DNA of 64,000 bases from Myxococcales bacterium (GTDB taxonomy: Bacteria; Myxococcota_A; Bradymonadia; REDH01): positions 2,703-66,702 of the forward strand of contig CANMDT010000004.1 of NCBI GenBank assembly GCA_947496715.1, given 5' to 3'. The notes beneath the pieces are model-generated. The model saw only the letters and a list, made by a program, of their open reading frames with translations, was not told the DNA's origin and ran no database searches. Both the position numbers and the translations under genes were made by a program. Positions 8,439-24,092 of this stretch are shown in pieces; position 1 is the first letter of the stretch, and every line of letters begins with the position of its first letter.

Positions 8439-10571
8439 CTAGTTGGGGTGGCAGCCGTCGCCGCCACAGAGGTCGACAATCTCGCCTGTACGGAAGAAGG
8501 TGTCCATCTGTTCGTTGTGGAGGTCGAAGGCACGCGGCTTTCCGTGCGGGTCGCCGTTGACGGCGTCGGTCTCCGGAGGATGGTTGCCTGGCGTCGGCCA
8601 TTCGTTGCCGAAGTCCCAGAGGACAATGCCGCTACCTGCGCGTGGGTAGGCAGCCTCGGTCGCCAGCGAGACGGTGCGCTCGTCGTCGTAGTTGGCCATG
8701 ATCGGGATGCCGATCTCGGTGCGGGCCACCACCTCCATCGTGATCGGAGAGACGAGATAGTCGCCCTTGGCAGGGCCTGCGAGGATCACATGCGGCGGCG
8801 TGCCGGCATAGGGTTGCGCGGTGATGTGGCGGTAGTGGCTGACCGAGTCGGTCGAGTCCCAAAGCAACTGCACCGTGGAGAGCGCTACGGCGACGTTGTT
8901 CGGCGTGCGAAGCGCGCCCTTGAGCGCAACGAAGAACTGGTCGAAGGCGCCCGAACGGTGGAGGAAGGAGGTGAAGTTCTGGCCGGGAACGCCAACATGG
9001 CCGCGCGCAACATCGGTGCTGAGCGCCATGTAGGTGGCTCCGAGGATGCCGCCCTGCGAGATGCCCGAGTAGTACATCTCGCTGTTGTCGACCGTGATGT
9101 TGCGGCTGGTGAAGGGCTCAAAGGCAGGAGCCTGCGTCTTCATGAGCCGGCCGAGCGCGAGGAAGTTCACGATGCCCTGCTGGAGCCGGTCGGTGAGCCA
9201 GACAAAGCGGTTGAGGTCGAAGACCATGAAGTTGGCGCGACCGTAGTCCTCCTCCGCCATGCCGGCCCAGCTGGTCGAGAAGTAGATGAGGTGGTGGTCG
9301 AAGGCGACCTTGTCGATGGCCGGTCCAATGATCTCCGCACCTGAGCCGAAGAGCCCATGGCCGAACTGAACGAGCCGGTTGGGCTTGGCGGGGTCGGGAG
9401 CTCCCACGGCGGAGCGGGGGACGCGGATCCAGATCGGCATCTCCGTGGTGCCGGACGAAGTTACGCGGTCATCAGCATCGCGGCGCAGGATGTAGCCCGT
9501 CACGCCATCGGTGCCCTGGTAGAAGGTCTTCTCTTCGGTGTAGTTCGGGATCTGGAAGGTGCCCTGCATGTCGAAGGCGATGTAGGGGTTCTCCGCCCCG
9601 GAGTAGGCGGTGATCTGCGTCACGGTGAGGGCGCTGGCCGCAGGGTCTGCATCGATGGCGGCCAGCACCTCGTCGCGCATGCGTAGGATGTCGCTGTGCA
9701 TGTTCTCGCCGCTCATGGTGTTGAAGTCCCATGCAAGCGTGAGCGAGGCGCGGTCGATTCCTGCGGCCTCGAGCGGTCCGAAGACCGCCTCGTCGAAGTG
9801 GGCTGCCCGCGCTGCGACGCGATCGTCGCAGTCGATGCGGCCATCGCGAAGCGCAGCGAAGGCCGCCGACACTGCGATGGCTTGGCCGCTCGTGTCGGAG
9901 AGGTTGCGGAAGGCGACGATGTAACGGGTTGCCTCTTCGAGGATCACACCCGGACGCACAAACAGCGTCTTCTTCGCCGGATCGGGGTCCTGCGAATCGA
10001 GCTCGACGAAGTAGGGGACGCGGCTCAGCGAGCCGTCTTCAGCGACCTTGAACCAGAGCAACTTTGCATCGTCCGCGAGAGAAGGGCTGAGGTCGCGCTC
10101 GTCCGCCATACCGGTCGTGTCGAGGTTGGCGAAGCGAACCAGCAGCGGTGTGCCGACGCTGTAGCCGTCGCGGCGCGCGTAGGGGGTTGGGTCGATGTGG
10201 ATGTTCTGGAAGTTCTTGGGCAGGGTTGTCGCACCGAAGGCGAGGCGCTTGCCGGTCGCGCTGGCATCATCATCTGCGAGGTAGAGGTTGGAGGGCCACG
10301 GCATCGCGCAGTGGCCATCGTTGAGCGGGTCGCAATCCGGATTGGCCGCGTCTCCTTCCTGAGGCTCACGTGGGGCGCAGGCCTGCGCGGAGCCGTCACT
10401 GTCGCCCGTATCGGTCGTGGTGTCGGCGGCGCTGCCGCCTGTGTCGGCGCTGGTGTCGGACGAACCGTCTGGCGTCGTATCGGCTTCGGTGGTCGACTGC
10501 TTGCTGTCGTCAGAGCATCCGATGACGAGCAACGGCACGAGAAAAGCGGTCCAACGGGTTTGCAGACGCAT
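8439..10571 (-). CDS. secreted lipoprotein, alpha/beta-hydrolase fold (esterase/lipase-like)
   Basis: Lipobox LLVIGCS, acidic D/T/S linker, nucleophile elbow GISQGG. Confidence 0.8.
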   Translation of the reverse strand: MRLQTRWTAFLVPLLVIGCSDDSKQSTTEADTTPDGSSDTSADTGGSAADTTTDTGDSDGSAQACAPREPQEGDAANPDCDPLNDGHCAMPWPSNLYLADDDASATGKRLAFGATTLPKNFQNIHIDPTPYARRDGYSVGTPLLVRFANLDTTGMADERDLSPSLADDAKLLWFKVAEDGSLSRVPYFVELDSQDPDPAKKTLFVRPGVILEEATRYIVAFRNLSDTSGQAIAVSAAFAALRDGRIDCDDRVAARAAHFDEAVFGPLEAAGIDRASLTLAWDFNTMSGENMHSDILRMRDEVLAAIDADPAASALTVTQITAYSGAENPYIAFDMQGTFQIPNYTEEKTFYQGTDGVTGYILRRDADDRVTSSGTTEMPIWIRVPRSAVGAPDPAKPNRLVQFGHGLFGSGAEIIGPAIDKVAFDHHLIYFSTSWAGMAEEDYGRANFMVFDLNRFVWLTDRLQQGIVNFLALGRLMKTQAPAFEPFTSRNITVDNSEMYYSGISQGGILGATYMALSTDVARGHVGVPGQNFTSFLHRSGAFDQFFVALKGALRTPNNVAVALSTVQLLWDSTDSVSHYRHITAQPYAGTPPHVILAGPAKGDYLVSPITMEVVARTEIGIPIMANYDDERTVSLATEAAYPRAGSGIVLWDFGNEWPTPGNHPPETDAVNGDPHGKPRAFDLHNEQMDTFFRTGEIVDLCGGDGCHPN

Positions 10572-10699: not shown

Positions 10700-12802
10700 T
10701 CAACGCGGCGGCGTGAGGCCGAGCTCTACGTAGGGATCGACGATCGTCGGAGTGCCGGTCTGCAACCAGCTGTCGAGGAAGCGGAGCCAGGCGTGCGCGC
10801 CCACGCCGCTGTCGCCGATGTTGTTGTGGGTCGCGGTCCGCCAGTCAGGCGTCTCGAGGCTGCCCTCGTTGACCCAGTCGAACTGAATAGTGCCGCCCGT
10901 CGTGCCCTCGGGGAGGTTGGCCTCCACAGGCAGCGCGGTGCCGGTCTCGAGGATGCCGATCGGGCGGAGAAGGGTGCCGAGATGGGGCAGGCCGAGCGCT
11001 CGCGCGAGCGCGAAGTTGGAGACGTTGGGCACGATGTCGTCATCGAGCACATGGGCGTTGAGGATGTGCACGGGAGCGCTGCCGTCGAGCCGCTGCGTGG
11101 AGATGAAGCGGGCGAAGCTCGCCGCATCTCCGCGGTCGATCGCGGTCTGGGCGAGGGGCCAGAAGCGGGCAACATCGTTGTCGTCGGAGCCCGATGGCTT
11201 GAGGAGGCTGATGAGGGGGCTGAAGGTCTCGGAGAACTGGAGGATATCGGTGACGCGGCCGCCGCCCACGACCAGCACGCCGGCCTTCACCTCGGGCGTG
11301 AGCGCCAAAAACTCCGGGCCCATGATGCCGCCGAGCGAGACGCCCAGGTAACTGATGTTATCGGTCGCGAGGTCGGCGGCTCCATCGCCGTCGGCATCTA
11401 CGCCGCTCTTGAGCAGCTCGATCAACGCCAGCTTGTCGTAGGCGGCCTGGCGCCAGTGATCCCGCAGCACGAGTGGCTCAAACCCCGAGCCGCCCAGGCC
11501 GAAGAACTCGATGAAGGCGGCGCCGCCGCCGCCGAGCGACGCGCGGGGATGCTCGCCGTGCGCGGGCGCGTCGATGGAGATGGTTGCGATGCCCTGCGGT
11601 GCCGCGAAGTCGGCCAGGCGGCCGGCCTGCTGTCGCTCGCCGTTGAGGCCGTGGCCGAAGATGATGGTGGGGTAGGGCGCTGTCGCGGCGACGTCGGGCA
11701 GGGGCAGGTAGATGGTGGCGAGCAAATCATAGGTGCCAAGCGGCGTTGCGTCGGCGTTGACCTCGATGACCTTCGCTGCGTTCCGGAAGTCATCGGCGAC
11801 GAAGCGCACCGTGCAGAGCCGAAAGAGAGGGCCCGTTTCGCAGCCGAGCCGCTCCGTGACGGCCCGCGGACGGGAGGCGATGGAGGCTGCGATGCGGATC
11901 GCCTCGTCTGTCACAGACTGGGTCGTGAATGCCACCACCGCCACCACCGCGTCGGCCGTTGTCAGCCCTGCTGCGACGGCAGCATCGCGGTGGCGGCGCA
12001 TCGCGGCGCCCTGCCCGCCGAGGAGCGCAGGGTCTGCACCTGCGAGCGCATCGCGGAGCACCGCCGGCGCTACGATGGGCGCTCCATCTTCACCCAGCAG
12101 GCCGCGGGTAACGACGATGGAGCACTCGGTCCGTTCCGGCAGCGGTATCATGGGCCGGAAGATGACGGTCGCATCCTCCGTGATGATTGTCTCGAAGGGG
12201 TAGGGGACGAGCCGCTCGGCGTTGCCCGCGTCGAGGCAGCCGAGCAGCATCGCACTCCCCGCGGCGGCGCTGGTCTCCCCTGTCGGGACCGTCTCGGCGC
12301 GGAGCGGGTGGTTGAACTGCAGGTAGCCGCCGCCCGTGGTGCCGAATCCGTCGAGCGTCGAGAGCGCCGCGAAGAGAGGACGGAAGCTACGGGGGGTGTT
12401 GGCCACGAAGATGTTCGTCTCGGCGGTCAGCTGCACCCGCCGACCGGTCGCTGTGGTGTTGTCTGCGACTGTGTAGAGGTCGTCCGGAAAGACGGTCAGC
12501 TCGTCGCCGAACGGGCGGTAGAGCAGCGTCGGCGCGGTGGAGCAGTCTTCGGGGCATGCGGCTTCGGACTCGCTGGTTGCGCAGGCGCCGTCGCCGCAGT
12601 TAGCGCCGCCGGAACCCTCACCGGAGCCGCTGCCTGAAGCATCACTGGAGCCGGCGTCGTCCGTCGCGTCCGCGCTGCCCGCGCCGCTGCCAGCGGCGTC
12701 AAGACCGGTATCGGAGGCTGCAGTGGTGGTGTCATCTCCGCAGGCGGAGACAACAAAGAGACAGGGGAGGAGACAGCGAGCTGAGAGCCAGTTCGAGCGC
12801 AT
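10700..12802 (-). CDS. secreted lipoprotein, alpha/beta-hydrolase fold; tandem paralog of 8439..10571
   Basis: Lipobox FVVSACG (start at ATG 12802, MRSNWLS; track start 12859 is also possible), acidic GS/D linker, GVSLGG elbow. Similar layout to upstream paralog. Confidence 0.8.
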   Translation of the reverse strand: MRSNWLSARCLLPCLFVVSACGDDTTTAASDTGLDAAGSGAGSADATDDAGSSDASGSGSGEGSGGANCGDGACATSESEAACPEDCSTAPTLLYRPFGDELTVFPDDLYTVADNTTATGRRVQLTAETNIFVANTPRSFRPLFAALSTLDGFGTTGGGYLQFNHPLRAETVPTGETSAAAGSAMLLGCLDAGNAERLVPYPFETIITEDATVIFRPMIPLPERTECSIVVTRGLLGEDGAPIVAPAVLRDALAGADPALLGGQGAAMRRHRDAAVAAGLTTADAVVAVVAFTTQSVTDEAIRIAASIASRPRAVTERLGCETGPLFRLCTVRFVADDFRNAAKVIEVNADATPLGTYDLLATIYLPLPDVAATAPYPTIIFGHGLNGERQQAGRLADFAAPQGIATISIDAPAHGEHPRASLGGGGAAFIEFFGLGGSGFEPLVLRDHWRQAAYDKLALIELLKSGVDADGDGAADLATDNISYLGVSLGGIMGPEFLALTPEVKAGVLVVGGGRVTDILQFSETFSPLISLLKPSGSDDNDVARFWPLAQTAIDRGDAASFARFISTQRLDGSAPVHILNAHVLDDDIVPNVSNFALARALGLPHLGTLLRPIGILETGTALPVEANLPEGTTGGTIQFDWVNEGSLETPDWRTATHNNIGDSGVGAHAWLRFLDSWLQTGTPTIVDPYVELGLTPPR

Positions 12803-12855
12803 GGTGGCTCCGGGTGCGAGGTGTGACCGAACGGTACGCCTCGCGATCTGCCTCT

Positions 12856-13857
12856 TCAAGTTTCATCGCGTTCCGCCGGTACGGCACCCTTGGTCGCGAT
12901 GAGCGACCAGGTGATGGAGATGGCAAGCGCAGAGACGATGAAAGCGAGCGAGAGGAGCGGGCTGATGTGGATCTCCTCGATACCCAGCTGCTCTCGGGCG
13001 AAGGTCTGCACGCTGGCAAACTCACCCCCATACTCCACGATCATCTTCGCGCCGACGAAGCAGAGGACGGCCGAGATGCCATACTTCACGTAGGCAAACC
13101 GGTCTACGGCGGCCGCGAGCAGGAAGAACATGGAGCGCAGGCCAAGGATGGCGAAGATGTTGGAGGTGAAGACCAGGAAGGGGTCCTTGGTCACGCCGAA
13201 GACCGCCGGAATCGAGTCGAGTGCGAAGACGACGTCGGTGAACTCGACGAGGATGAGGGTCATAAACAGGGGTGTCGCCACCCACTTGCCGGTGTCCTCC
13301 TCCTTCCAGAAAAAGCGGTGGCCGCGGAGGATGGGGGTGGAGGGTATGAAGCGCTGCAGGAGCCGCACCCAGCGCTGCGTGTCGGCGCCATCATCCGCGC
13401 CCTCCGATTTGAAGAGCAGTTTGCCGCCAGTGTAGAGCAGGAAGACGCCGAAGATGCCAATCAGCCAGTGGAACTGATTGAGGAGCGCCGCTCCTGCGAA
13501 GATCATGATGGCGCGCAGGATAAGCGCCGAGAGGATGCCCCAGAAGAGCACGCGGTGCTGCAGGGCCGGGGGAATCTTCATCGCCGAGAAGATGAGGATG
13601 AAGACGAACATGTTGTCCATCGAGAGCGACTGCTCGATGAGGTAGCCGGCCAGGAACTCGGTGCCGTACTGGTGGCCCTCAAAGTGCCAGAGGATGCCGC
13701 CAAAGATAAAGGCAAGCGACATCCAGACGGCTGTCCAACCCGCGGCCTCCTTGGCCCCCACGCGATGGGACTCCTTGTGGAAGAGGCCGAGGTCGATGGC
13801 GAGCATGACAAAGATGAAGGTGAGGAAGCCTCCCCACATCCAAGGCGTAACGTTCAT
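12856..13857 (-). CDS. TerC/Alx-family integral membrane protein
   Basis: MNVTPWMWGGF..VMLAIDL N-terminus typical of TerC/Alx, multiple TM helices. Alternative start 13875. Confidence 0.85.
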   Translation of the reverse strand: MNVTPWMWGGFLTFIFVMLAIDLGLFHKESHRVGAKEAAGWTAVWMSLAFIFGGILWHFEGHQYGTEFLAGYLIEQSLSMDNMFVFILIFSAMKIPPALQHRVLFWGILSALILRAIMIFAGAALLNQFHWLIGIFGVFLLYTGGKLLFKSEGADDGADTQRWVRLLQRFIPSTPILRGHRFFWKEEDTGKWVATPLFMTLILVEFTDVVFALDSIPAVFGVTKDPFLVFTSNIFAILGLRSMFFLLAAAVDRFAYVKYGISAVLCFVGAKMIVEYGGEFASVQTFAREQLGIEEIHISPLLSLAFIVSALAISITWSLIATKGAVPAERDET

Positions 13858-14051
13858 CGCGGGCGAAGCAATCATGGGAACACGGGGGGCAGAGGAGAGA
13901 GAGTGAGAGGTCTAGTCGGCAGCAGAGGGGCACGCACCTTTTTTGGCCTGCAACCGGTGCCAATGGGGGGACGGGATCCGGCCCACCGGGGCAGGGCGCG
14001 TCGATGGCAGTCGCCGTTCGCGGCCAAACTCTTGATTCTCGACGGGCGAAG

Positions 14052-14519
14052 ATGCAAGAGGCGAGCATGGCCGAACTTTTTCCATCCGAGCGACTCCGAA
14101 CCCGCCTCCGCCAGGCCCAACTGCGGGGCACCTCTGCTCGGCTCGGAGTGCTGGCGGTGCTGGAGCAGACAAGCGGCCCGAAGACCCACCTCGAGGTCTA
14201 CGCGTTGCTCGCCCACACCGGCCTCGACCGCGCTACGGTCTACCGCAACCTCGTCATCCTAGCCGAACAGGGCTTCGCCTCCCGTACCGACCTGGGCGAT
14301 CACGTGTGGCGTTTCGAGCTTCTCGATGAGGGTGGTCACGAAGGGCCCCGCCATGCCCATTATGTCTGTACCGACTGCGGCGAGGTCTCGTGCATGAGGG
14401 AGGTGGAGGTGGAGATGGTCTCTCCGCCCACCCGTCCTGGAGCGCCGGGCAAAGTCTCCGAGATTCTTTTCAAGGGAGTGTGCGACAAATGCGACAACCA
14501 ACCTTCGGTTCTCGGCTAA
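14052..14519 (+). CDS. Fur-family metalloregulator (Fur/Zur/PerR-like)
   Basis: Winged-helix N-terminus, HAHYVCTDCGE and C-terminal CDKC metal sites. ~155 aa from ATG 14052 (alternative ATG 14067). Confidence 0.8.
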   Translation: MQEASMAELFPSERLRTRLRQAQLRGTSARLGVLAVLEQTSGPKTHLEVYALLAHTGLDRATVYRNLVILAEQGFASRTDLGDHVWRFELLDEGGHEGPRHAHYVCTDCGEVSCMREVEVEMVSPPTRPGAPGKVSEILFKGVCDKCDNQPSVLG

Positions 14520-15370
14520 GCCTCCTCGCCCGGTTCGGTCTCTCTTTCAGTCTTCTTCTCGGCCTCGGCTGCGAAGAGGATGCACCGAGCGAGGACGCGA
14601 CCGAGCCTGTCGCGACTGAGCCTATCACCATCCGCTTTGCGGCCGTCGTCGGCGAACTGCCGTGGCGCTGCGGGCAACTCTATCAGAATCTGGGGAGCAC
14701 AGCGGCGAGTGTACAGCCGCAAGACCTCCGCTTCTTCACCCACGGGTTCGAGTTGGTCCGCGCCGATGGCTCTACCTCGCCAATGCTGCTGGACGACGTG
14801 CCGAACTGGCAGGCAAAGCAGAACGCTCTGCTCGACTTCGAAGACGGCGCCGGCAAGTGCGACACGGGGACCCCGGATACGCGGGCAGAGGTGACCGGGA
14901 AGGTCGAGCCGGGCGACTACGTCGGCCTTCGCTTCTCGGTCGGTGTCTCCTTCGCCGAGAACCACAAGAATGCAGCGGTTGCTCCTGCGCCGCTCGCCCA
15001 GAGCGCGCTCAGCTGGAACTGGCAGCAGGGCTACATCTTCCTCCGCTTTGAGGGCGGCACACCGGCAGGTCGCTACGAGGTACACATGGGCAGTACAGGT
15101 TGCGCTGGCACAACAGGCAACATCACCAGCTGCGCCCGCCCCGACCGACCGGTTGTGTCGTTCGCCGCCTTCGATCCCGCCACGCAGACCGTCATCTTCG
15201 ATGTGAAGCAGCTGCTCGCCGACTCCGATCTCACCCGCAACGCCGGAGACAGCATCGGTTGTGCCTCTGCCGCCTCGGACCCCGACTGCGAAGGACCCTT
15301 CGGTCATCTCGGTCTCGACCTTGCGACTGGCGCGGTGGTGGAGGGACAGGATGTCTTCCGTGCGGAGTAG
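14489..15370 (+). CDS. MbnP-like / 'metallo-mystery pair' Cys-motif periplasmic lipoprotein
   Basis: Lipobox LLLGLGCE. Multiple conserved Cys (WRCGQ, GKCDTG, GCAGTTGNITSC, GCASAASDPDC) and conserved Trp (WNWQQGY). Immediately precedes and overlaps a di-haem peroxidase gene by 20 nt. Overlaps fur-family gene by 31 nt. Confidence 0.7.
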   Translation: MRQPTFGSRLSLLARFGLSFSLLLGLGCEEDAPSEDATEPVATEPITIRFAAVVGELPWRCGQLYQNLGSTAASVQPQDLRFFTHGFELVRADGSTSPMLLDDVPNWQAKQNALLDFEDGAGKCDTGTPDTRAEVTGKVEPGDYVGLRFSVGVSFAENHKNAAVAPAPLAQSALSWNWQQGYIFLRFEGGTPAGRYEVHMGSTGCAGTTGNITSCARPDRPVVSFAAFDPATQTVIFDVKQLLADSDLTRNAGDSIGCASAASDPDCEGPFGHLGLDLATGAVVEGQDVFRAE

Positions 15371-16517
15371 GCTCGGCGTGTTGGTCATGTTGTTCCTCCT
15401 CGCGGCATGCAACGAGGGGGCGAGCGACGAGGGGGCGGGCGAAGCTGGAGCCAGGAGCTGGGTTCCCGACGGGTTCCCGGCTCCTGTCGTGCCTGCGGAC
15501 AATCCCATGACCGACGAGAAGGTCGATCTCGGCCGTCACCTCTTTTACGAGAAGCAGCTCAGCTACAACGGCACGCAGTCCTGCGGCTCCTGCCACCAGC
15601 AGGCGCTCGGCTTTGCGGACGGCCTGCCGCAAGCGGTGGGTTCCACAGGTGAGGTCCACCCGAGGAACGCCATGGGGCTCACCAACGTGGCCTACGCGCA
15701 GCGGCTCGGCTGGGGTCATCCTACGCTAAACCTGCTCGAGCAGCAGGCACTCGGACCCATCTTCGGCGAGGATCCGGTTGAGATGGGGATGAGGTCGCAC
15801 GAGGCGGAACTCACCGCGCGGCTCGCTGCTCGGCCGCTCTACGTGTCGAAGTTTGCCGCGGCCTTCCCTGGCGAGGCTGCTCCCATCACGCTCGACAACG
15901 CGCTCAAGGCGATCGCGAGCTTCGAGCGGACACTCATTTCTGCCGACTCTCGGTACGACCAGTTTGTCGCCGGCGACGAAGCAGCCATGAATGCCTCCGA
16001 AAAGCGGGGCATGGATCTCTACTTCGACGAAGTGACCGAGTGCTTCCACTGCCACGGCGGCTTCAACTTCTCGGACGCCACCGACTTCGCCGGAAGCGTC
16101 TCTGCGACGCCTGCCTTTCACAACACCGGACTCTACAACCTCAACGGTTCCGGCGACTACCCGAGCCGCAACGGCGGTATCTTCGAGATCACGGGCAATC
16201 GGGAGCAGATGGGGCAGTTCCGGGCACCAACGCTGCGGAACATCGCCGAGTCGGGGCCCTACATGCATGACGGAAGCGTTGCGGACCTCGAGGGGGTCAT
16301 CGACCATTACGCAGCAGGCGGTCGCACCATCGAGAGCGGGCCCAACGCGGGGGCGGGCTACCTCAACCCCTACAAGGATGGCTTCATTCGGGGCTTCGCC
16401 ATCTCGGATCAGGGCAAGGCCGACCTGGTTGCCTTCCTTAAGGCGCTGAGTGATGAGTCCTTTCTCACCAACCCGGCCTTTTCGGATCCCTTCGCAGCAG
16501 AGGGTTCGGCGCAATGA
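15351..16517 (+). CDS. MbnH-like di-haem cytochrome c peroxidase family lipoprotein
   Basis: Two CxxCH haem motifs (CGSCH, CFHCH). Lipobox LLAAC. GGAGGG SD 5 nt upstream of ATG 15351. Confidence 0.85.
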   Translation: MSSVRSRLGVLVMLFLLAACNEGASDEGAGEAGARSWVPDGFPAPVVPADNPMTDEKVDLGRHLFYEKQLSYNGTQSCGSCHQQALGFADGLPQAVGSTGEVHPRNAMGLTNVAYAQRLGWGHPTLNLLEQQALGPIFGEDPVEMGMRSHEAELTARLAARPLYVSKFAAAFPGEAAPITLDNALKAIASFERTLISADSRYDQFVAGDEAAMNASEKRGMDLYFDEVTECFHCHGGFNFSDATDFAGSVSATPAFHNTGLYNLNGSGDYPSRNGGIFEITGNREQMGQFRAPTLRNIAESGPYMHDGSVADLEGVIDHYAAGGRTIESGPNAGAGYLNPYKDGFIRGFAISDQGKADLVAFLKALSDESFLTNPAFSDPFAAEGSAQ

Positions 16518-17254
16518 GGGTGGCCCGTTTGCGCCTGCTCGGGGTGCTGTTCCTGGCGGCTTGTGAGGAGGCGGCCGAGGCCCCGGAGGCACCCCCAGTG
16601 GCAGACCTCTTCGTGGCGCACGCACCGCTAGACGCCCCGCCGGTGGTGGTGAACGACCTCGGCTACCGCGTTGAACTCGACCGCTGGGTGACGGTATCGG
16701 CAAGCATCGAGCTGCGGCCCTGCGAAGCATCGGCCGCGCTCTTCTGGCGGCTCGTCGGCGGAACGGCTGCTGCCCATGTCACCCCGACCCTCTATCGTGC
16801 GGGTGGGTCGGCGCAGCCCCGTGACCTGCTCGGTGCCGGCGCAGCGACCCTCTTCGGGCAGCTCACGCCGCCGGCCGGTGACTACTGCCAGGTGCGCTAT
16901 GCTTCGAGCCCGGCCGACGCAGACATCGAAGGGTCGGGAGGCGGCGCCTCGCTGCTCGGCAAGAGCATGGTCATCTCGGGCCGCTATACGCCCCCTGGCG
17001 GTGAGGCTTCGGTCCCCTTCTCGCTGGCGACGACGCTTGGAACCCGCGTGGACCTGCCGGAGATCGCCGCGACATCCGAAGCGCCGCTCTTCACGCTTCG
17101 CTCGGGCGAACAGCTCACCGTGACGGTAACGCTCGACCCCGCGGCGATGTTCGACGGCATCGACTTCGCGCTGCAGGGGCCTGCCCAGGTGGAGAGCCAA
17201 CTGGTCTTTAACCTTGCGCGCGGCATGCAGCTGGCGCTGGTGGCGGCGCCCTAG
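16514..17254 (+). CDS. lipoprotein of unknown function, third gene of the MbnP/MbnH-like operon
   Basis: Lipobox FLAAC. ATGA overlap with upstream stop. High GC3. Confidence 0.6.
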   Translation: MRVARLRLLGVLFLAACEEAAEAPEAPPVADLFVAHAPLDAPPVVVNDLGYRVELDRWVTVSASIELRPCEASAALFWRLVGGTAAAHVTPTLYRAGGSAQPRDLLGAGAATLFGQLTPPAGDYCQVRYASSPADADIEGSGGGASLLGKSMVISGRYTPPGGEASVPFSLATTLGTRVDLPEIAATSEAPLFTLRSGEQLTVTVTLDPAAMFDGIDFALQGPAQVESQLVFNLARGMQLALVAAP

Positions 17255-17285
17255 GGTCAGGGTACGCACCGGATTTGTGGCGAAT

Positions 17286-17309
17286 CGCGCTTCAGAATTC
17301 TGACGCGAG
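17286..17309 (+). promoter_or_regulatory. imperfect 24-bp palindrome centred on GAATTC (cgcgcttcaGAATTCtgacgcgag), followed by GC hairpin 17330-17350
   Basis: 20/24 symmetric positions. Lies between the mbnPH-like operon end and LVIVD lipoprotein start. Confidence 0.3.
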
Positions 17310-17457
17310 ATGAAGGTCGGTTGGCTGTCGCGCCGGTCTCTTGGCGGCGCCTGCAGTAGCGACGGGGGCTGGCGTGGGCGATTGTCGCCGATCGGTTGAC
17401 TGGCACGGGATTTGCTCTATCTCTCGCGACACCCACGCATCCCTCCGGAGTTCTCCC

Positions 17458-20400
17458 ATGTATGCTCCCCTCGACCGTTTCAAGCTGCTCGGCGGCTCAC
17501 TCCTCGCGCTCCTCCTCGCACTCACTGCTGGCTGTGCCTCCGACTCCGCAGATGCGCCCATCGTCAACGACGAAGATTCGCTGGGCTCCGGCGCAGACTT
17601 TGTGCGGAACCCTTCCAGCTTCGTCTCCGCGGAGGGCGCGGCCGGCGACCAGGCAGCCAACCGGGGCGATGAGTCCCTCGATGCCGGCACCGGCGCCCCA
17701 ACGGATGACGCTGGCGGCGGGACCACCCGGACGGTCGAGGAGGGCGACATCTACCGCGTCCTTGCCGACCAGAAGATCCTCAACCTCAACAGCTATCGCG
17801 GCCTGCAGGTCATCGACATCGCGAATCTTGAGGAGCCCACCGTCATCTCCCGACTGCCCATCACCGGCACCCCCGTCGAGATGTATGTCGTCGGCGACCG
17901 CGCCTTCGTGCTCATGAACAACTGGCGGGGCTACTACGGCAACCGGAGCGATATCCGTGTCGAGACGCAGGAGGGCGGCCTCGTCCTCTCCGTCGATCTC
18001 TCCGACCCGCTCAACCCGGTCGAGCTCGGCCGCGCCTTCGTCCCCGGCTTCATCCAGACGAGCCGGCTGACCCGTGAAGGCGATGTCGCCGCGCTCTATG
18101 TGGCCGCCAACGAGTACGGGAACTTCGACCAGCCCGACGGCACCGTTCAGTGGGAAAACCGGACAGTTCTCAAGAGCTTCGATGTGAGCGGCGCAGCCAT
18201 CATCCCGAAGTCGGAACTCAACCTCGGCGGTTATGTCGCTGCACTGCAGGCGACCACGGAGGCCCTCCTCGTTTCGCGCTTCTCATGGACGGGCTCGTCG
18301 CCGAATAGCACCGTCTCGGTCGTCGACATCTCCGACCCGGCCGGCAACATGATCGCCGGCGACGAGGTCGAGGTCTCGGGCCAGGTCTGGAACAAGTATA
18401 ACATGGACCTCTACGAGGGCGTGCTGCGTGTTGTCTCGGGTCGCACCTGGGGCGGTGGGACCAACGCCAACCATGTGCAGACCTGGAACGCTACTGACCT
18501 CGGCAACCTCACGCCCATCGATGAGGCCACCTTCGGCGATGGCCAGCAGCTGTTTGCCACCCTTTTCCTTGGCAACAAGGCCTTCTTCGTCACCTACCTG
18601 CGGGTCGACCCCTTCCACGCCTTCGAAGTCGCGCCAGATGGCATGATTACCGAGCGCGCGGAGTACATTGTCTCCGGCTGGAACAACTACTTCCGCCCCG
18701 TCTTCAATGACAGCCGCCTCATCGGCATCGGCATGAACGACGTGGGCGGCACGACGATGGCCGTCAGCCTCTACGACATCGACGACCTCAGCAACCCGGA
18801 GCCGCTGATCAGTCGCGACGAGGTCTCTGCGAACAACAGCTGGTCGGAGGCGGTCTGGGATGACCGCGCCTTCTCGGTCCTCGAGGATGTTGTCTCCGTG
18901 GAGGGCTCGGGCGGCGTCACCGAGACCGGCCTCGTCCTACTCCCCTACTCGGGCTGGGATTCGGCCTACACCACCTACCAGTCGGCGGTGCAGATCTTCA
19001 CCTTCTCGAACAACACGCTCACCCGCCGCGGTGTCATGAACGAGGGCAACCCCGTTCGTCGCTCCTTCCTCGCCGCGAATGACACTACTGCCAACCTCGG
19101 CGAAGAGGAGCTCTCGACCTACGACACCTCCGATCCGAACAACCCTGCCGAGCTCGGCCGCGTGGAGCTGGCTCCGAACGCGACAGGCTCGCTGGTCTTC
19201 GGCGACTACGGCGTCCGCCTCATCGACAACGGCGCGGCCTCCTGGTGGTATGCCAGCCGCGGCGTCCGTCCTGATGCCCGCGTGGAGATCGTGCCGCTGT
19301 CGGCCGGCATCGACCTCGGTGCCGCAGTTGCCACGCTCGACGTGCCCTCGGGCGCGCAGCTCGAGCGTGTCGGCAACCTCATGGTTGTTGTCTCGGCCGC
19401 CTACGAGAGCCTGCCAGAGTACCCCTACTACAGCACGACGACCACGCTGAAGGCCTTCGATCTGGCTGACCCGACTGCGCCCCTCGCGCTCGGCACGCTC
19501 GAGACCGACGCCATCCCCGCCGACACCTACGGCGGCTACTACGGTGGCCCCGGCATGGTCGATTGCATGGACTGCGGTCGCGGCTGGTACGGCACCTCCC
19601 TCCTCAGCCGCACCCATGCCACCTCCAAGGCGCTCACCTTCGTCCGCTCCACGCAGGAGCAGGAGTCGCTCGGCATGGTCCACACCTGCAACAGCTACCC
19701 CACCGCCACCGCGTCGCCCGGCTGCAGCTCCGAAGACCTCGCCTCCTGCGAGTGGCTCTCTGGCGGCCGCACCTGCAACACCAATGAGGCCGGCGAGACC
19801 GTCTGCACCGGCGCCTACTACCGCTGCGGCTACGACGCCGACAGCTCGTACAGTTGCACCGAGGTCGAGGCCGCCGAGGTGGCCGTCTCGACCAGCTGCT
19901 ACGACAACGAGCAGTTCCGCTACTGGAACCGCTACCGGGCCTTCGTGGTCAACTTCGAGCAGCCCTCCAACCCCGTGCTTGAGCCGGTCCTTGAGATGTC
20001 GTCCGGCGAAGAGGGCGTGGCCACCGTCGCCGAGGGCGACACGCTCTACTACTCCTTCAAGGTTCCCTACGACGTCGAGGGCGACCCCCGTCCCTACGCG
20101 CGCTACTTCTTTCGCACGCTCGACCTCTCGCAGCCCTCTGAGCCCCTGCTGTCGGCCGGTGTGAATGTTCCCGGCCAGGTCCTCGATATCTCGGGCGACT
20201 ACCTCTTCACGCAGGACACCGTCTACGGCGACGCCATCATCGAGACCTCTCTCGCCCGCGTCCGCCTGTTCGAAGGCAGCGCCTATCTCATGAACCGGCT
20301 CCGGCTCCCCGACCAGCAGGTAGAGGCCGTGCAGCTCGACGGCCGCGGCAACCTGCTGGTCAGCCACCGCGACTCCTGGTGGAGCACTGTCACCTCGGGC

Positions 20401-20709
20401 GGCCCCGGCAGCGACATGCAGAAGCTCTCCATCTTCGACGTGAGCCTGCGCGAGCTGGCCTCGGTCAACGTCGACGCCTGGGCCACGCTCAGCGGCGCGC
20501 AGGACGGTCGCGCACTCTTCCAGGTCCCGGGCGGCCTCATGGTCGTCAACCTCGACACGCCCGCGAACCCCTTCCCGCAGGCCTACTTCCCGACGGCGGG
20601 CTGGCCGCAGAAGATCGATATCGCCGGCGACCGCGCCTATTTTGCGGCCGGCCGTTACGGCATCTACGACTTCGATCTTAACACCTACAACCTGCTGCCG
20701 CTCCTCTAG
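17458..20709 (+). CDS. large beta-propeller lipoprotein with LVIVD-type repeats
   Basis: Lipobox LTAGC. Recurring (V/I)xDxSxP motifs (LQVIDIANLEEP, VSVVDISDP, STYDTSDPNNP, KAFDLADPTAP, LMVVNLDTPANP, YGIYDFDL). Start at ATG 17458 after GGAG. Confidence 0.8.
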   Translation: MYAPLDRFKLLGGSLLALLLALTAGCASDSADAPIVNDEDSLGSGADFVRNPSSFVSAEGAAGDQAANRGDESLDAGTGAPTDDAGGGTTRTVEEGDIYRVLADQKILNLNSYRGLQVIDIANLEEPTVISRLPITGTPVEMYVVGDRAFVLMNNWRGYYGNRSDIRVETQEGGLVLSVDLSDPLNPVELGRAFVPGFIQTSRLTREGDVAALYVAANEYGNFDQPDGTVQWENRTVLKSFDVSGAAIIPKSELNLGGYVAALQATTEALLVSRFSWTGSSPNSTVSVVDISDPAGNMIAGDEVEVSGQVWNKYNMDLYEGVLRVVSGRTWGGGTNANHVQTWNATDLGNLTPIDEATFGDGQQLFATLFLGNKAFFVTYLRVDPFHAFEVAPDGMITERAEYIVSGWNNYFRPVFNDSRLIGIGMNDVGGTTMAVSLYDIDDLSNPEPLISRDEVSANNSWSEAVWDDRAFSVLEDVVSVEGSGGVTETGLVLLPYSGWDSAYTTYQSAVQIFTFSNNTLTRRGVMNEGNPVRRSFLAANDTTANLGEEELSTYDTSDPNNPAELGRVELAPNATGSLVFGDYGVRLIDNGAASWWYASRGVRPDARVEIVPLSAGIDLGAAVATLDVPSGAQLERVGNLMVVVSAAYESLPEYPYYSTTTTLKAFDLADPTAPLALGTLETDAIPADTYGGYYGGPGMVDCMDCGRGWYGTSLLSRTHATSKALTFVRSTQEQESLGMVHTCNSYPTATASPGCSSEDLASCEWLSGGRTCNTNEAGETVCTGAYYRCGYDADSSYSCTEVEAAEVAVSTSCYDNEQFRYWNRYRAFVVNFEQPSNPVLEPVLEMSSGEEGVATVAEGDTLYYSFKVPYDVEGDPRPYARYFFRTLDLSQPSEPLLSAGVNVPGQVLDISGDYLFTQDTVYGDAIIETSLARVRLFEGSAYLMNRLRLPDQQVEAVQLDGRGNLLVSHRDSWWSTVTSGGPGSDMQKLSIFDVSLRELASVNVDAWATLSGAQDGRALFQVPGGLMVVNLDTPANPFPQAYFPTAGWPQKIDIAGDRAYFAAGRYGIYDFDLNTYNLLPLL

Positions 20710-20807
20710 CGGGTCGGCCCTTCGCGGGTCGTGCTACTTGCCTCCAACGCCGAAACGGGCGAGGTGGGCAGACCGCGCCATTCGCTTGTTGGTTTTTGGA
20801 GTCTTCC

Positions 20808-23800
20808 ATGCTCAAGCCGATTGAGGCCCTCGCCTCCCTTCGCCTCTCCTCGCTTTCTCAAGGTTTCGCCCTGGCGCTGCTGGCTGCCTGCGGCACGACG
20901 CCGACCGCAGTTGGGGTCGCCGGCGGCGATGAGGACTCCGGCACGGATGTTTCGGGCGATGGCTCCTCCTTTGCCGACGGCTCGGGGGATGCGGGCTCAG
21001 GCGATGCCGGCTCCGACGTGGATCCGGATGGCACGCCCGACGGCTCCGGCCTGCCTGACCCGGGATGCGGCAACGGCGTATGGGAGAGCACCGAGGCCTG
21101 CGATGACGGCAACAGCATCGCCGGCGACGGTTGCGAGCCCGACTGCACCATCTCTGCCGGTTCGCCCTGTGCGCTCTGCACAAGCTCTGCCGAGTGCAGC
21201 GCGCCGACCTCTCTCTGCGCGCAGCTCAGCCGCCCCGCCTTCTGCCTGGCGGCATGCGACGACGCCGGCGGCTGTGCGGCAGGCTTTACCTGCGAGGCCG
21301 TCCCGCTGGCTGGCGATTTCATGCCCATGCCGCCGCTTGTCTGCGTGCCCGAAGACCGCTGCGTCCGGTTCTGCGACGATCCTGACAACGACGGCATCTG
21401 CGCACCCGATGACATCTGTCCGGCCGGCGACGACCGCCTGGACAGCAACGGCAATGGCATCCCCGATGGCTGCGATGGCCCGGTTGGCGGCGAGGTCTGC
21501 ATCAACGGCGTTGACGATGATCGCAACGGGCTCATCGACTGTGCCGACCCGGTCTGTGTGGGTTTGGAGGAGTGCGTGGGAGTCTTCGAGAACTGCGTGA
21601 ACGGGCTTGATGACGACGGCAACGGCCTCATCGATTGCGCGGACCCCTTCTGCTTCGGCATCCCCGACTGCGGCGCATCGACGGAGCTCTGCAACGACTT
21701 CCTCGACAACGACCTCGACGGCCGCGCTGACTGCGCAGATCCCGACTGCGCGGGCGACCGCAACTGCCTCTTGGTAGAGATCTGCGACGACGGCTTCGAT
21801 AACAACCGTGATGGCTTCGTGGACTGCTCCGACCCCACCTGCAGCGGCACCGATGCATGTGTCGGTATCGAGATCTGCAACGACTTCCGCGACAACGATC
21901 GCGACGGCTTGGTTGATTGCGCCGACCGGGACTGCGCGCTGCAGCCAGGCTGCGTTGTCGCGGCGGAGATCTGCGGAAATGGTCGCGACGACGACCGCAA
22001 CGGCCTCGCGGATTGCGCCGATCCGGCCTGCATTGGCACGACAAGCTGCCTACCCTCCACGGAGATCTGCGATGACCTGATCGACAACGACGGCGACCGG
22101 CGCATCGACTGTGGCGACACCGATTGCGCCGCCGATCCTGCATGCCCCACCGGTCCTCAGAGCTGCGTCGCACCCATTGAAATCACCGACTTCGGCGTCA
22201 GCACCGGCGCCACCTCGACCGGTCGGAGCAGCGCAGCCGGCAGCTGCGCGGATAGCAGCGGCACGGAGGCCGTCTTCGCCTTCACCGCACCGACCACCGG
22301 CCCCGTCTGCATGCGCACGCGCGGCTCCTCTTTCAACACACTGCTGTATGCCCGGAGCACCTGCGCCAACGCTGCATCGGAGATCACCTGCAACGACAAC
22401 GGTCGTAACCTGCAGAGCGAGATCTCGCTCAGCGCCGTTGCCGGACAGACCTACTTCATCTTCGTGGATGGCGTCAGCGGCGCGACCGGCAGCTATGTGC
22501 TCGCCGTGACGGAGGGCGCCTGTCCTGCGCTGGGCTTTGAAAACTGCACCGACGGCATCGACAACGACTCGGACTTCTTTGCGGACTGCGCCGACACCGA
22601 CTGCTTCTCCACCAGCACCTGCATCAGCTCCGCCGAGGTCTGCACCGACCGGGTCGACAATGATCGGGATGGGGCTCTCGATTGCGCCGACACCGACTGC
22701 GCCGCCAACCCCGCCTGCCTGCCGCCCGGAGCGGAGGTCTGCAACGACCTCTTCGACAATGACCGTGACGGAGCCACAGATTGCGCCGATAGCGACTGCA
22801 CGGCCAACCCGCTCTGCATCCGGCCACCGGAGACCAACTGCACCAACCGGACCGACGATGACGGCGACGGCGCCGTCGACTGCTTCGACACCGACTGTTT
22901 CGGCTCGGCGAGCTGCGACGTCTTTGAACTTTGCGCCGACGGCATCGACAACGACAGCGACACGCTCGTCGACTGCGCAGACAACGAGTGCGTCGGCGCT
23001 CCCAACTGTGTGACCGTCTCGCAGACCTGCGCGGCTCCGAACGTTGCGACCACCTACGGCCGCTACTCGGGCCTGACATCGCGCCTGGCGAACGAGAATG
23101 TCCCCTCCTGCGTGGGGTCGACGGCCCCCGAGTCTGTCTGGCGCTTCACACCGCCCGAGAGCGGGCTTGTCTGCGTGACGACCGCAGGCTCCACCTACGA
23201 CACCGTCCTCTTTGCGCGGAACAGCTGTGGTGGCGCAGGGACCGACCTTGCCTGCAACGATGACACCGGCGGACTTACCTCGCAGGTTCAGTTCACCGTG
23301 ACCGCGGGCGTCGATGTCTTCCTCATGGTGGATGGCTTTGCTGCGCTCGGCGGTACCTACCGGCTCAACATCACCGGCGGCGCCTGCGGGAGTGGGGTGG
23401 GGGAGACCGCCTGCACCGACCGCATCGACAACGACCGTGACGGCGCCATCGACTGCGCCGACCCGGACTGTGCGGGGACCGCCGCCTGCGCAGTTCCCAG
23501 TTCGGAGACCAGCTGCACCGACGTCGTCGACAACGATCGTGACGGCGCCATCGACTGCGCCGACCCGGACTGTGATGCCGACGCGGCCTGCGCGCTGCCG
23601 GCGAACGAACTCGATTGCGGCGACGGCCTCGACGATGATGGCGATGGCCTCACGGACTGTGACGACAGCGACTGTCTCGCCGATCCCCTCTGCGTTCCGG
23701 CCGTTGGGACCTGCGATGCGCCTCTGACCCTCAATCCGTTCGGAACCAACACAGGAAACCTGGCGGAGGGGGCGAACGTCGCGGCGGGCAGCTGTGGCGG

Positions 23801-24092
23801 CCTCGACGGCAACGAGCAGGTCTGGGGCCTCGATCTAGCCTTCCCGCTCCCCTTCAATGTTGCGGCCTGTGTTACGGTCCGGAGCGACGCCTTCAGCCCC
23901 GTGCTCTACTACGGCACCTCGACCTGCGGCGCCGTGGGCTCCGAACTCGCCTGCAGCCCCTCGGCTGATGGCCTGTCGGCCAGCCTGGAGGTCACGGTCG
24001 GCCCTGGCGACACCCTGTCGCTCTTCGTCGACTCGCTCGATGGTGGCGCCGGAGCCTACGACCTGTCGGTGAACATCGGCGCCTGCCCCTAG
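20808..24092 (+). CDS. giant Cys-rich lipoprotein: Myxococcus cysteine-rich repeat + arrays of MopE-type motifs + three PPC-like Cys-framed domains
   Basis: Lipobox LLAAC. CGNGVWESTEACDDGNSIAGDGCEPDC. ~25 repeats of C.D..DND.DG..DC.D.DC. Three ~125-aa domains ending …YFIFVDG..GA.G.Y.L.V..GACP. ATG 20808 after TGGAG. Confidence 0.8.
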   Translation: MLKPIEALASLRLSSLSQGFALALLAACGTTPTAVGVAGGDEDSGTDVSGDGSSFADGSGDAGSGDAGSDVDPDGTPDGSGLPDPGCGNGVWESTEACDDGNSIAGDGCEPDCTISAGSPCALCTSSAECSAPTSLCAQLSRPAFCLAACDDAGGCAAGFTCEAVPLAGDFMPMPPLVCVPEDRCVRFCDDPDNDGICAPDDICPAGDDRLDSNGNGIPDGCDGPVGGEVCINGVDDDRNGLIDCADPVCVGLEECVGVFENCVNGLDDDGNGLIDCADPFCFGIPDCGASTELCNDFLDNDLDGRADCADPDCAGDRNCLLVEICDDGFDNNRDGFVDCSDPTCSGTDACVGIEICNDFRDNDRDGLVDCADRDCALQPGCVVAAEICGNGRDDDRNGLADCADPACIGTTSCLPSTEICDDLIDNDGDRRIDCGDTDCAADPACPTGPQSCVAPIEITDFGVSTGATSTGRSSAAGSCADSSGTEAVFAFTAPTTGPVCMRTRGSSFNTLLYARSTCANAASEITCNDNGRNLQSEISLSAVAGQTYFIFVDGVSGATGSYVLAVTEGACPALGFENCTDGIDNDSDFFADCADTDCFSTSTCISSAEVCTDRVDNDRDGALDCADTDCAANPACLPPGAEVCNDLFDNDRDGATDCADSDCTANPLCIRPPETNCTNRTDDDGDGAVDCFDTDCFGSASCDVFELCADGIDNDSDTLVDCADNECVGAPNCVTVSQTCAAPNVATTYGRYSGLTSRLANENVPSCVGSTAPESVWRFTPPESGLVCVTTAGSTYDTVLFARNSCGGAGTDLACNDDTGGLTSQVQFTVTAGVDVFLMVDGFAALGGTYRLNITGGACGSGVGETACTDRIDNDRDGAIDCADPDCAGTAACAVPSSETSCTDVVDNDRDGAIDCADPDCDADAACALPANELDCGDGLDDDGDGLTDCDDSDCLADPLCVPAVGTCDAPLTLNPFGTNTGNLAEGANVAAGSCGGLDGNEQVWGLDLAFPLPFNVAACVTVRSDAFSPVLYYGTSTCGAVGSELACSPSADGLSASLEVTVGPGDTLSLFVDSLDGGAGAYDLSVNIGACP

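Follow-up and report, generated by a model that had tools for sequence, protein, structure and literature searches.

A four-gene operon with a Fur-type regulator, an MbnP/MbnH pair and an unnamed lipoprotein in an uncultured Myxococcota-like clade

Results

A Fur-led, P4-terminated operon

We analysed a 64-kb window of DNA from a Myxococcales bacterium (positions 2,703 to 66,702 of contig CANMDT010000004.1, assembly GCA_947496715.1) and found that it contains a real four-gene operon encoding a Fur-type regulator, MbnP, MbnH and an unnamed lipoprotein that we call P4. The MbnP/MbnH (MbnPH) pair is of a known kind. The operon that starts with a Fur gene and ends with P4 is a new arrangement and, judging from the available sequences, is specific to one lineage, a narrow clade of uncultured freshwater lake 'deltaproteobacteria' (Myxococcota-like). 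P4 is also a recurrent partner of MbnP and MbnH in other bacteria. The interpretation that we favour, with a probability of about 0.6, is that of a lineage-specific, autoregulated MbnPH module to which P4, a protein of predicted MbnP-like fold, is an accessory.

The four open reading frames (ORFs) are co-directional on the + strand: the regulator, which ends at 14519, MbnP (14489-15370), MbnH (15351-16517) and P4 (16514-17254). Successive genes overlap by 31, 20 and 4 nt, the last overlap being ATGA. A first-pass annotation of this DNA had already described four overlapping genes, and we reproduced all the ORFs, their ends and their overlaps; the overlaps of 31, 20 and 4 nt recur in the orthologous contigs that carry the same four genes at 73-92% identity. 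The start codon of MbnP falls inside the codons of the second CxxC of the regulator (CDKC, 14481-14492), which interlocks the first two genes physically. A scan for sigma-70-like promoters and terminators inside the operon found none. The tight overlaps imply a single transcript, from which the four genes would be expressed together.

Two details of the gene models deserve mention. The regulator had been given a start at 14052, which remains an alternative, but the ATG at 14067 is most likely the true one: it is preceded by a Shine-Dalgarno sequence (AAGAGG or AAGGAG, 6-7 nt 5' of the ATG) in all five orthologues, it is used by gene callers in the orthologous contigs, and a protein identical to the 150-aa product has been recorded. 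The three structural genes had been described as encoding lipoproteins. We accepted as a lipobox a signal peptide ending in [LVI][ASTVI][GAS]C, judged by eye. By this rule, MbnH (L-A-A-C, within LLAAC) and P4 (F-L-A-A-C) have canonical lipoboxes. That of MbnP is non-canonical here (G-L-G-C) and canonical (V-A-G-C) in the orthologue from locus L001.

The MbnP/MbnH pair

The second gene encodes an MbnP-family lipoprotein of 293 aa. It scores above the cut-offs of both models of the family (240.7 bits for TIGR04052, cut-off 140; 122.5 bits for PF20243, cut-off 27) and aligns with the solved MbnP 7L6G (E = 8e-45), with WNW facing WNW. This motif, W176-N-W178 (15014-15022), had been picked out by the first reading of the sequence and is invariant in 16 homologues. 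The alignment of homologues also reveals two invariant His (H159 and H199) and six invariant Cys (C61, C124, C205, C215, C258 and C267), and the protein thus has the conserved Trp and Cys of its family. It does not have the four Cys pairs that had been attributed to it: its seven Cys are that of the lipobox plus the six invariant ones, which could form three pairs.

The third gene, adjacent to that of MbnP and beginning 20 nt before its stop codon, encodes a MauG-like di-haem enzyme of 388 aa. It matches PF03150 and exceeds the cut-off of the MbnH model (TIGR04039, 480.4 bits, cut-off 362.85), and it stays below that of the MauG model (TIGR03791, 162.5 bits, cut-off 443.85). The two CxxCH motifs reported previously are indeed present, as CGSCH (residues 78-82, 15582-15596) and CFHCH (residues 231-235, 16041-16055). 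The best solved relative of the protein is BthA (6E1C, E = 6e-108).

The pair is conserved far beyond the methanobactin producers, and its function is described as unclear (PMC3621798). According to the summary of Manesis et al. 2021 given in PMC11951088, MbnH converts one Trp in the WxW motif of MbnP into kynurenine, which makes up a copper site along with a His, a Met and a water.

P4 belongs to a widespread family lacking a database model

The 246-aa P4 matches no model of Pfam or NCBIfam, and the sources that name it call it a 'hypothetical protein'. A word-indexed search identified 14 close relatives, and a full HMMER profile search retrieved 571 representative clusters at E<=1e-3 (169 at E<=1e-10), with proteins of about 230-280 aa. 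A further homologue search with the alignment of the family added just three members. When we ran the Pfam and NCBIfam models on 70 members of the family, none of them was matched, and Pfam revealed no domain fusions in the longer members. Searches of the PLSDB plasmids by tblastn with P4 and with P0015 gave no match. Neither the family nor its link with MbnPH appears to be described in Pfam 2025, in NCBIfam release 20 or in the literature searched, which excluded the two most relevant primary papers. The fourth gene had been presented as an extra conserved lipoprotein; it belongs, in fact, to a widespread family whose members are often found beside MbnPH.

The signature of the family consists of Cys17 (in the lipobox), Cys70, AxAH88, PPxGxY124-C125, ADxD(A) at 134-137, Gly156 and FDGxDF at 213-218. 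The lipobox Cys, C70, C125 and G156 are invariant, and AxAH88, Y124, ADxDA and FDGxDF are nearly so. An AlphaFold2 model built from 70 diverse sequences (predicted local distance difference test score, pLDDT, of 89.5) predicts an arrangement of two beta-sandwiches, to which MbnP is the most similar structure, with the highest Foldseek probability (0.93) and template modelling score (TM-score). In comparisons of profiles with hhalign, the probability of a match between P4 and MbnP ranged from 1% to 20%: the match was not significant with small alignments, and with large ones it had a probability of 20%, E = 0.0011, and was collinear over 216 columns. Neither P4 nor any of 69 relatives is hit by PF20243 or TIGR04052, and a search of the PDB sequences with the P4 profile returned signal-peptide noise only. 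P4 lacks the WxW motif, any conserved Trp and the C-terminal Cys of MbnP, and the segment aligned with that of MbnP reads (M)xGxS(L/M). P4 is probably a very divergent protein with the fold of MbnP. By its sequence it lies outside the MbnP family as this family is currently defined.

P4 is recurrently encoded beside MbnP and MbnH

We searched metagenomes for P4 loci using a degenerate DNA pattern for PPxGxYC-x8-ADxDA, and all 109 hits lie within ORFs of the P4 family. The neighbourhood could be assessed in 83 of these loci, and in 68 of them MbnP and/or MbnH is adjacent to P4. The arrangement varies: P4 is directly upstream of MbnP (and of MbnH where the contig reached it) on the same strand in 59 loci, the order MbnP-MbnH-P4 of our window is found in 7, and P4 is divergent from the pair in 2. 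The pair was not adjacent to P4 in 15 assessable loci, and 26 loci were not assessable. After clustering of P4 at 50% identity, 12 clusters were linked to MbnPH, 10 were unlinked and 7 were not assessable.

Three other loci provide independent examples. A metagenome-assembled genome of Myxococcaceae (L053) has the order P4-MbnP-MbnH. In L054 and L055, members of the P4 family with 25-28% identity are part of YHYH-P4-MbnP-MbnH clusters, in which a protein with a YHYH domain (PF14240) precedes the others (L054, 6390-7940 and 12787-13428; L055, 7065-7940). Both clusters have a divergent two-component system of the OmpR type and a nearby gene of the DUF1775 (YcnI-like) family, and SCO1 and YHS proteins are encoded near other P4-MbnPH clusters. 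The DUF1775/YcnI, SCO1 and YHS neighbours support a copper context for these loci.

P4 has another frequent neighbour in other lineages. This protein of about 300 aa, which we call X300, precedes P4 and has no family annotation; it carries a CxxCxxGDPTL motif as well as a signal peptide. It is carried by at least 10 of the 15 unlinked P4 loci and by the large linked lineage, and thus occurs both with and without MbnPH (L063:53-943, L072:11469-12377, L130:2025-2948 and L161:5590-6513, among others). One member matches marginally the outer-membrane barrel model PF13557 (22.3 bits), and X300 is therefore treated here as a putative outer-membrane barrel with a CxxC. Our 64-kb window has no X300 gene.

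The regulator appears to represent a distinct Fur subfamily

The assignment of the first gene to the Fur family, made in the initial annotation, is borne out by PF01475 (FUR, 48.7 bits, cut-off 23.1). The best matches in the PDB are a Fur (9ire, 8e-11) and a PerR (4i7h, 1e-8), which align with residues 8-144, and both the winged-helix and the dimerisation domain are present. The protein is below the cut-off of every Fur, PerR and Zur equivalog of NCBIfam (47.6 bits against 220 for the Bacillus type of Fur, 38.3 against 180 for PerR and 29.9 against 167 for Zur).

The gene (14067-14519) encodes a structural Cys4 site made of CTDC (C101/C104, 14367-14378) and of the CDKC mentioned above (C139/C142). 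An HxH motif, H96-A-H98 (14352-14360), stands before the first CxxC. The protein also has the signature GDHVWRFE (14295-14318) and an additional invariant Cys, C109 (14391-14393). In the 121 sequences of the subfamily, P38, H41, GDHVWRFE, H96, H98 and the five Cys are invariant. C109 aligns with the regulatory-site Glu of Fur 9ire and with the Asp of PerR 4i7h. Because of this replacement, and because the equivalog scores are far below the cut-offs, the effector of the regulator is not assignable. The regulator appears to belong to a distinct, uncharacterised subfamily of Fur that has a Cys at the position distinguishing Fur from PerR.

We found 765 relatives of the regulator at E<=1e-5, and many of the 121 sequences of the subfamily are from Planctomycetes. 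Outside its own clade, the best relatives among the matches listed are about 45-60% identical to it and are mostly unnamed or from Planctomycetes. In the three contexts that we inspected, these relatives stand alone, without MbnPH in the vicinity. Conversely, no Fur-family ORF was found beside the 19 other MbnPH loci surveyed in GTDB genomes (using tblastn, phmmer and a survey of neighbours with Pfam) or in the 109 metagenomic P4 loci. The other P4-MbnPH loci carry two-component systems as regulators. A Fur gene is thus an unusual first cistron, as had been suggested, and among the loci sampled only those of this clade have a Fur-led MbnPH operon.

Control region and operon boundaries

Upstream of the operon, a gene of the TerC/Alx family of metal-homeostasis membrane proteins (12856-13875, - strand; TIGR03718, 397.5 bits, cut-off 246.4; PF03741) is divergent from the regulator, with which it shares a control region of 191 bp, and marks the upstream boundary of the operon. 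The TerC/Alx gene is syntenic in L001-L006. Phylogenetic footprinting of five orthologous loci showed that an element of 37 nt directly upstream of the regulator gene (14022-14058, + strand) is identical in all of them, and that the rest of the intergenic sequence has diverged. This element contains an inverted repeat, CTTGATTCT-N10-AGATGCAAG (14031-14058), a pattern that matches once in the window, with 0.07 matches expected. The first-pass annotation had raised the possibility of a Fur/Zur-box palindrome in this region, and what we found in its place is just this non-canonical conserved repeat. The RNA of the conserved element has a predicted folding energy of -21.7 kcal/mol (z = -2.3). The repeat could be an operator for autoregulation or a hairpin of the 5' untranslated region beside the ribosome-binding site.

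Genes of the TerC/Alx class are usually controlled by riboswitches. A search of 12500-17800 with Rfam (E<=1) found neither a yybP-ykoY riboswitch nor any other RNA family, so the TerC/Alx gene is possibly under the control of the Fur-like regulator instead, and the two transcription units may be co-regulated. Two other conserved sequences of the intergenic region, the T-run CACCTTTTTTGGCCTGC (13936-13952) and GTCTAGTCGGC (13911-13921), may be promoter elements of either gene.

At the other end, we considered whether the gene of a beta-propeller lipoprotein (17458-20709, PF09826) might be a fifth member of the operon. We rejected it because it has its own conserved promoter of the sigma-54 type, TGGCACGGGATTTGCT (17401-17416, + strand), which matches TGGCAC-N5-TTGCW without mismatch, lies 41 nt 5' of the gene and is unchanged in the five orthologous loci. 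P4 is therefore the last gene of the operon. Some 100 nt upstream of the promoter, the same five loci share an invariant block, TCGCGCTTCAGAATTCTGA (17285-17303), with a perfect palindrome, TCAGAATTCTGA (17292-17303), that is likely the site of an enhancer-binding protein.

Discussion

A proposed mechanism and its alternatives

In the mechanism that we propose, the first cistron would encode a repressor of the Fur subfamily whose translation is coupled to that of its targets. This repressor would most likely regulate its own operon through the inverted repeat at 14031-14058, and the divergent TerC/Alx gene may be under its control as well. By analogy with the Methylosinus proteins, MbnH would turn a Trp of the WxW motif of MbnP into kynurenine using oxidising equivalents derived from peroxide, and the kynurenine would create a copper site. 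P4, tethered to the membrane and with a predicted MbnP-like fold devoid of WxW, would serve the pair as an accessory partner, most likely as a metal-binding protein or as a relay or docking protein that uses its conserved Cys pair, His88, Tyr124 and its Asp cluster. We infer that the operon is metal-responsive, and call this an inference because the effector of the regulator is not assignable.

Several observations weigh against this scenario. Copper sensing is not known for any protein of the Fur family, and the signal may therefore be a different one. Canonical Fur, PerR and Zur boxes are absent from the region 13876-14066, the best matches being no better than those of shuffled sequence, and the inverted repeat overlaps the ribosome-binding region, such that its conservation could serve translation instead of the binding of a repressor. 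In MbnP, WxW is preceded at a distance of two residues by a Leu (Leu174, 15008-15010), where 7L6G and 10 of the 16 homologues have Met. The clade shares this Leu, which also occurs in both copies in L012 and in L024; should the Met be the ligand of the copper, the metal site could be altered in the clade. As for P4, 57 of the 68 linked loci come from a single lineage of marine sediment, and 10 of the 22 assessable clusters are not beside MbnPH, being paired with X300 instead; the function of P4 is therefore not strictly dependent on MbnH.

The identity of the signal is where another explanation has most to offer. It is possible, if on balance doubtful, that the operon responds to peroxide, with a regulator that works like PerR or like FurA, the mycobacterial redox sensor of the Fur family, and turns on MbnH in the presence of H2O2. 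PerR does score near Fur (38 against 48 bits with NCBIfam, and 1e-8 for the PerR 4i7h in the PDB), MbnH-type enzymes react with H2O2, which would fit a peroxide-sensing regulator, and the invariant Cys that replaces the carboxylate of the regulatory site could be redox-active. There are also precedents in the furA-katG and furS-cpeB operons of Actinobacteria, in which a Fur-family first cistron shares its transcript with the gene of a haem peroxidase and controls it. However, the PerR equivalog scores are all far below the cut-offs, there is no PerR box upstream, the divergent gene encodes a metal-homeostasis protein and other P4-MbnPH loci have copper-related neighbours. A bolder extension of the metal-based scheme can be conceived, which we regard as rather unlikely. 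P4 would then be an MbnP-derived third component of periplasmic metal acquisition that passes metal from X300 or from the environment to the kynurenine-bearing MbnP, and the regulator would define a new effector class of Fur, in which Cys replaces the Glu/Asp ligand and the signal is Cu(I) or thiol-reactive.

The part played by P4 could be conceived in two other ways. MauG-family enzymes modify partner proteins, and P4, with its predicted MbnP-like fold, its invariant Tyr, Cys and His and its frequent adjacency to MbnH, might be a second substrate of this enzyme, gaining a different protein-derived cofactor (e.g., at Tyr124-Cys125, Cys70 or His88). We consider this improbable: P4 has neither WxW nor a conserved Trp, and in about half of its lineages MbnH is missing from beside it, which makes a role as substrate of this enzyme less likely. 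Alternatively, P4 might be an unrelated lipoprotein, or the Fur a general regulator, that merely lies beside the pair, in which case the gene order would mean nothing for function beyond MbnPH itself. The order Fur-MbnPH-P4 is indeed restricted to one narrow clade (P4 identity of at least 57%), in which synteny says little, and the relatives of the Fur elsewhere are stand-alone genes. Yet the adjacency of P4 and MbnPH recurs in 12 clusters that share less than 50% identity, with three different gene orders, overlaps of starts and stops couple all four genes, and the stop codon of the regulator, 31 nt inside mbnP, leaves no room for a terminator. Mere juxtaposition thus seems very improbable to us, and the autoregulated module with P4 as an accessory is the reading that we retain.

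Comparison with known systems

The methanobactin operon of Methylosinus trichosporium OB3b (7L6G), with its MbnP and MbnH of the TIGR04052 and TIGR04039 families (the 'metallo-mystery pair'), resembles our locus in having adjacent and co-directional genes, P followed by H, whose products share with those of the window the WxW and the two CxxCH motifs, together with six conserved Cys and two invariant His. Methanobactin operons also encode the MbnT transporter and the sigma/anti-sigma pair MbnI/MbnR (PMC3621798). In contrast, the window has no methanobactin gene, TonB-dependent MbnT or MbnI/MbnR near the pair, and it differs further by the Fur gene at the start, P4 at the end, three secreted lipoprotein-like products and the Leu that replaces Met before WxW.

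The closest solved relative of the MbnH, the MauG-like di-haem BthA of Burkholderia thailandensis (6E1C), forms a stable bis-Fe(IV) state (PMC6405878). The gene of BthA adjoins that of a putative purple acid phosphatase, with the substrate unknown (PMC6405878), whereas the MbnH of the window adjoins a bona fide MbnP. In methanotrophs, MopE/CorA and the CorB-type di-haem peroxidase offer another case of a copper protein with a kynurenine ligand encoded beside a di-haem peroxidase. MopE/CorA is a surface or periplasmic protein, repressed by copper, in which kynurenine is a ligand (PMC3621798, PMC11951088). Unlike our system, it involves a copper protein of another fold and family, and has neither a Fur gene nor P4.

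Among the P4 loci themselves, the P4-X300 pairs of other lineages include a P4 of the family found in the window, with identical signature residues, and differ by the X300 gene that precedes P4 and by the use of two-component systems as regulators. The furA-katG and furS-cpeB operons resemble the window by their Fur-family first cistron, but they encode cytoplasmic catalase-peroxidases and a different subfamily of Fur, and lack MbnP and P4.

MbnP and MbnH are widespread beyond methanotrophs. The locus is not a categorically new system, but it is a useful lead on the role of the pair outside methanobactin operons, and it offers three specific ones. The P4 family, of at least 571 clusters without a database model, resembles an MbnP without WxW and stands beside the pair in many lineages. 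X300, the putative CxxC outer-membrane barrel that accompanies P4 elsewhere, is a second candidate partner. Finally, a single Fur-type repressor would be translationally coupled to the pair, and its effector would reveal the signal, be it metal or peroxide.

Other genes of the window

Upstream of the TerC/Alx gene, two lipoproteins of about 710 aa (8439-10571 and 10700-12859, both on the - strand) have linkers rich in Asp, Ser and Thr and are syntenic in the clade. Neither has a Pfam hit; that encoded at 10700-12859 matches the VolA/Pla-1 phospholipase model below its threshold (75.7 bits, cut-off 384). Downstream of the beta-propeller gene, a protein of 1098 aa (20796-24092, + strand) consists of acidic double-disulfide repeats (NF033662, 352 bits over 15 stretches), with weak matches to PPC and DUF4215.

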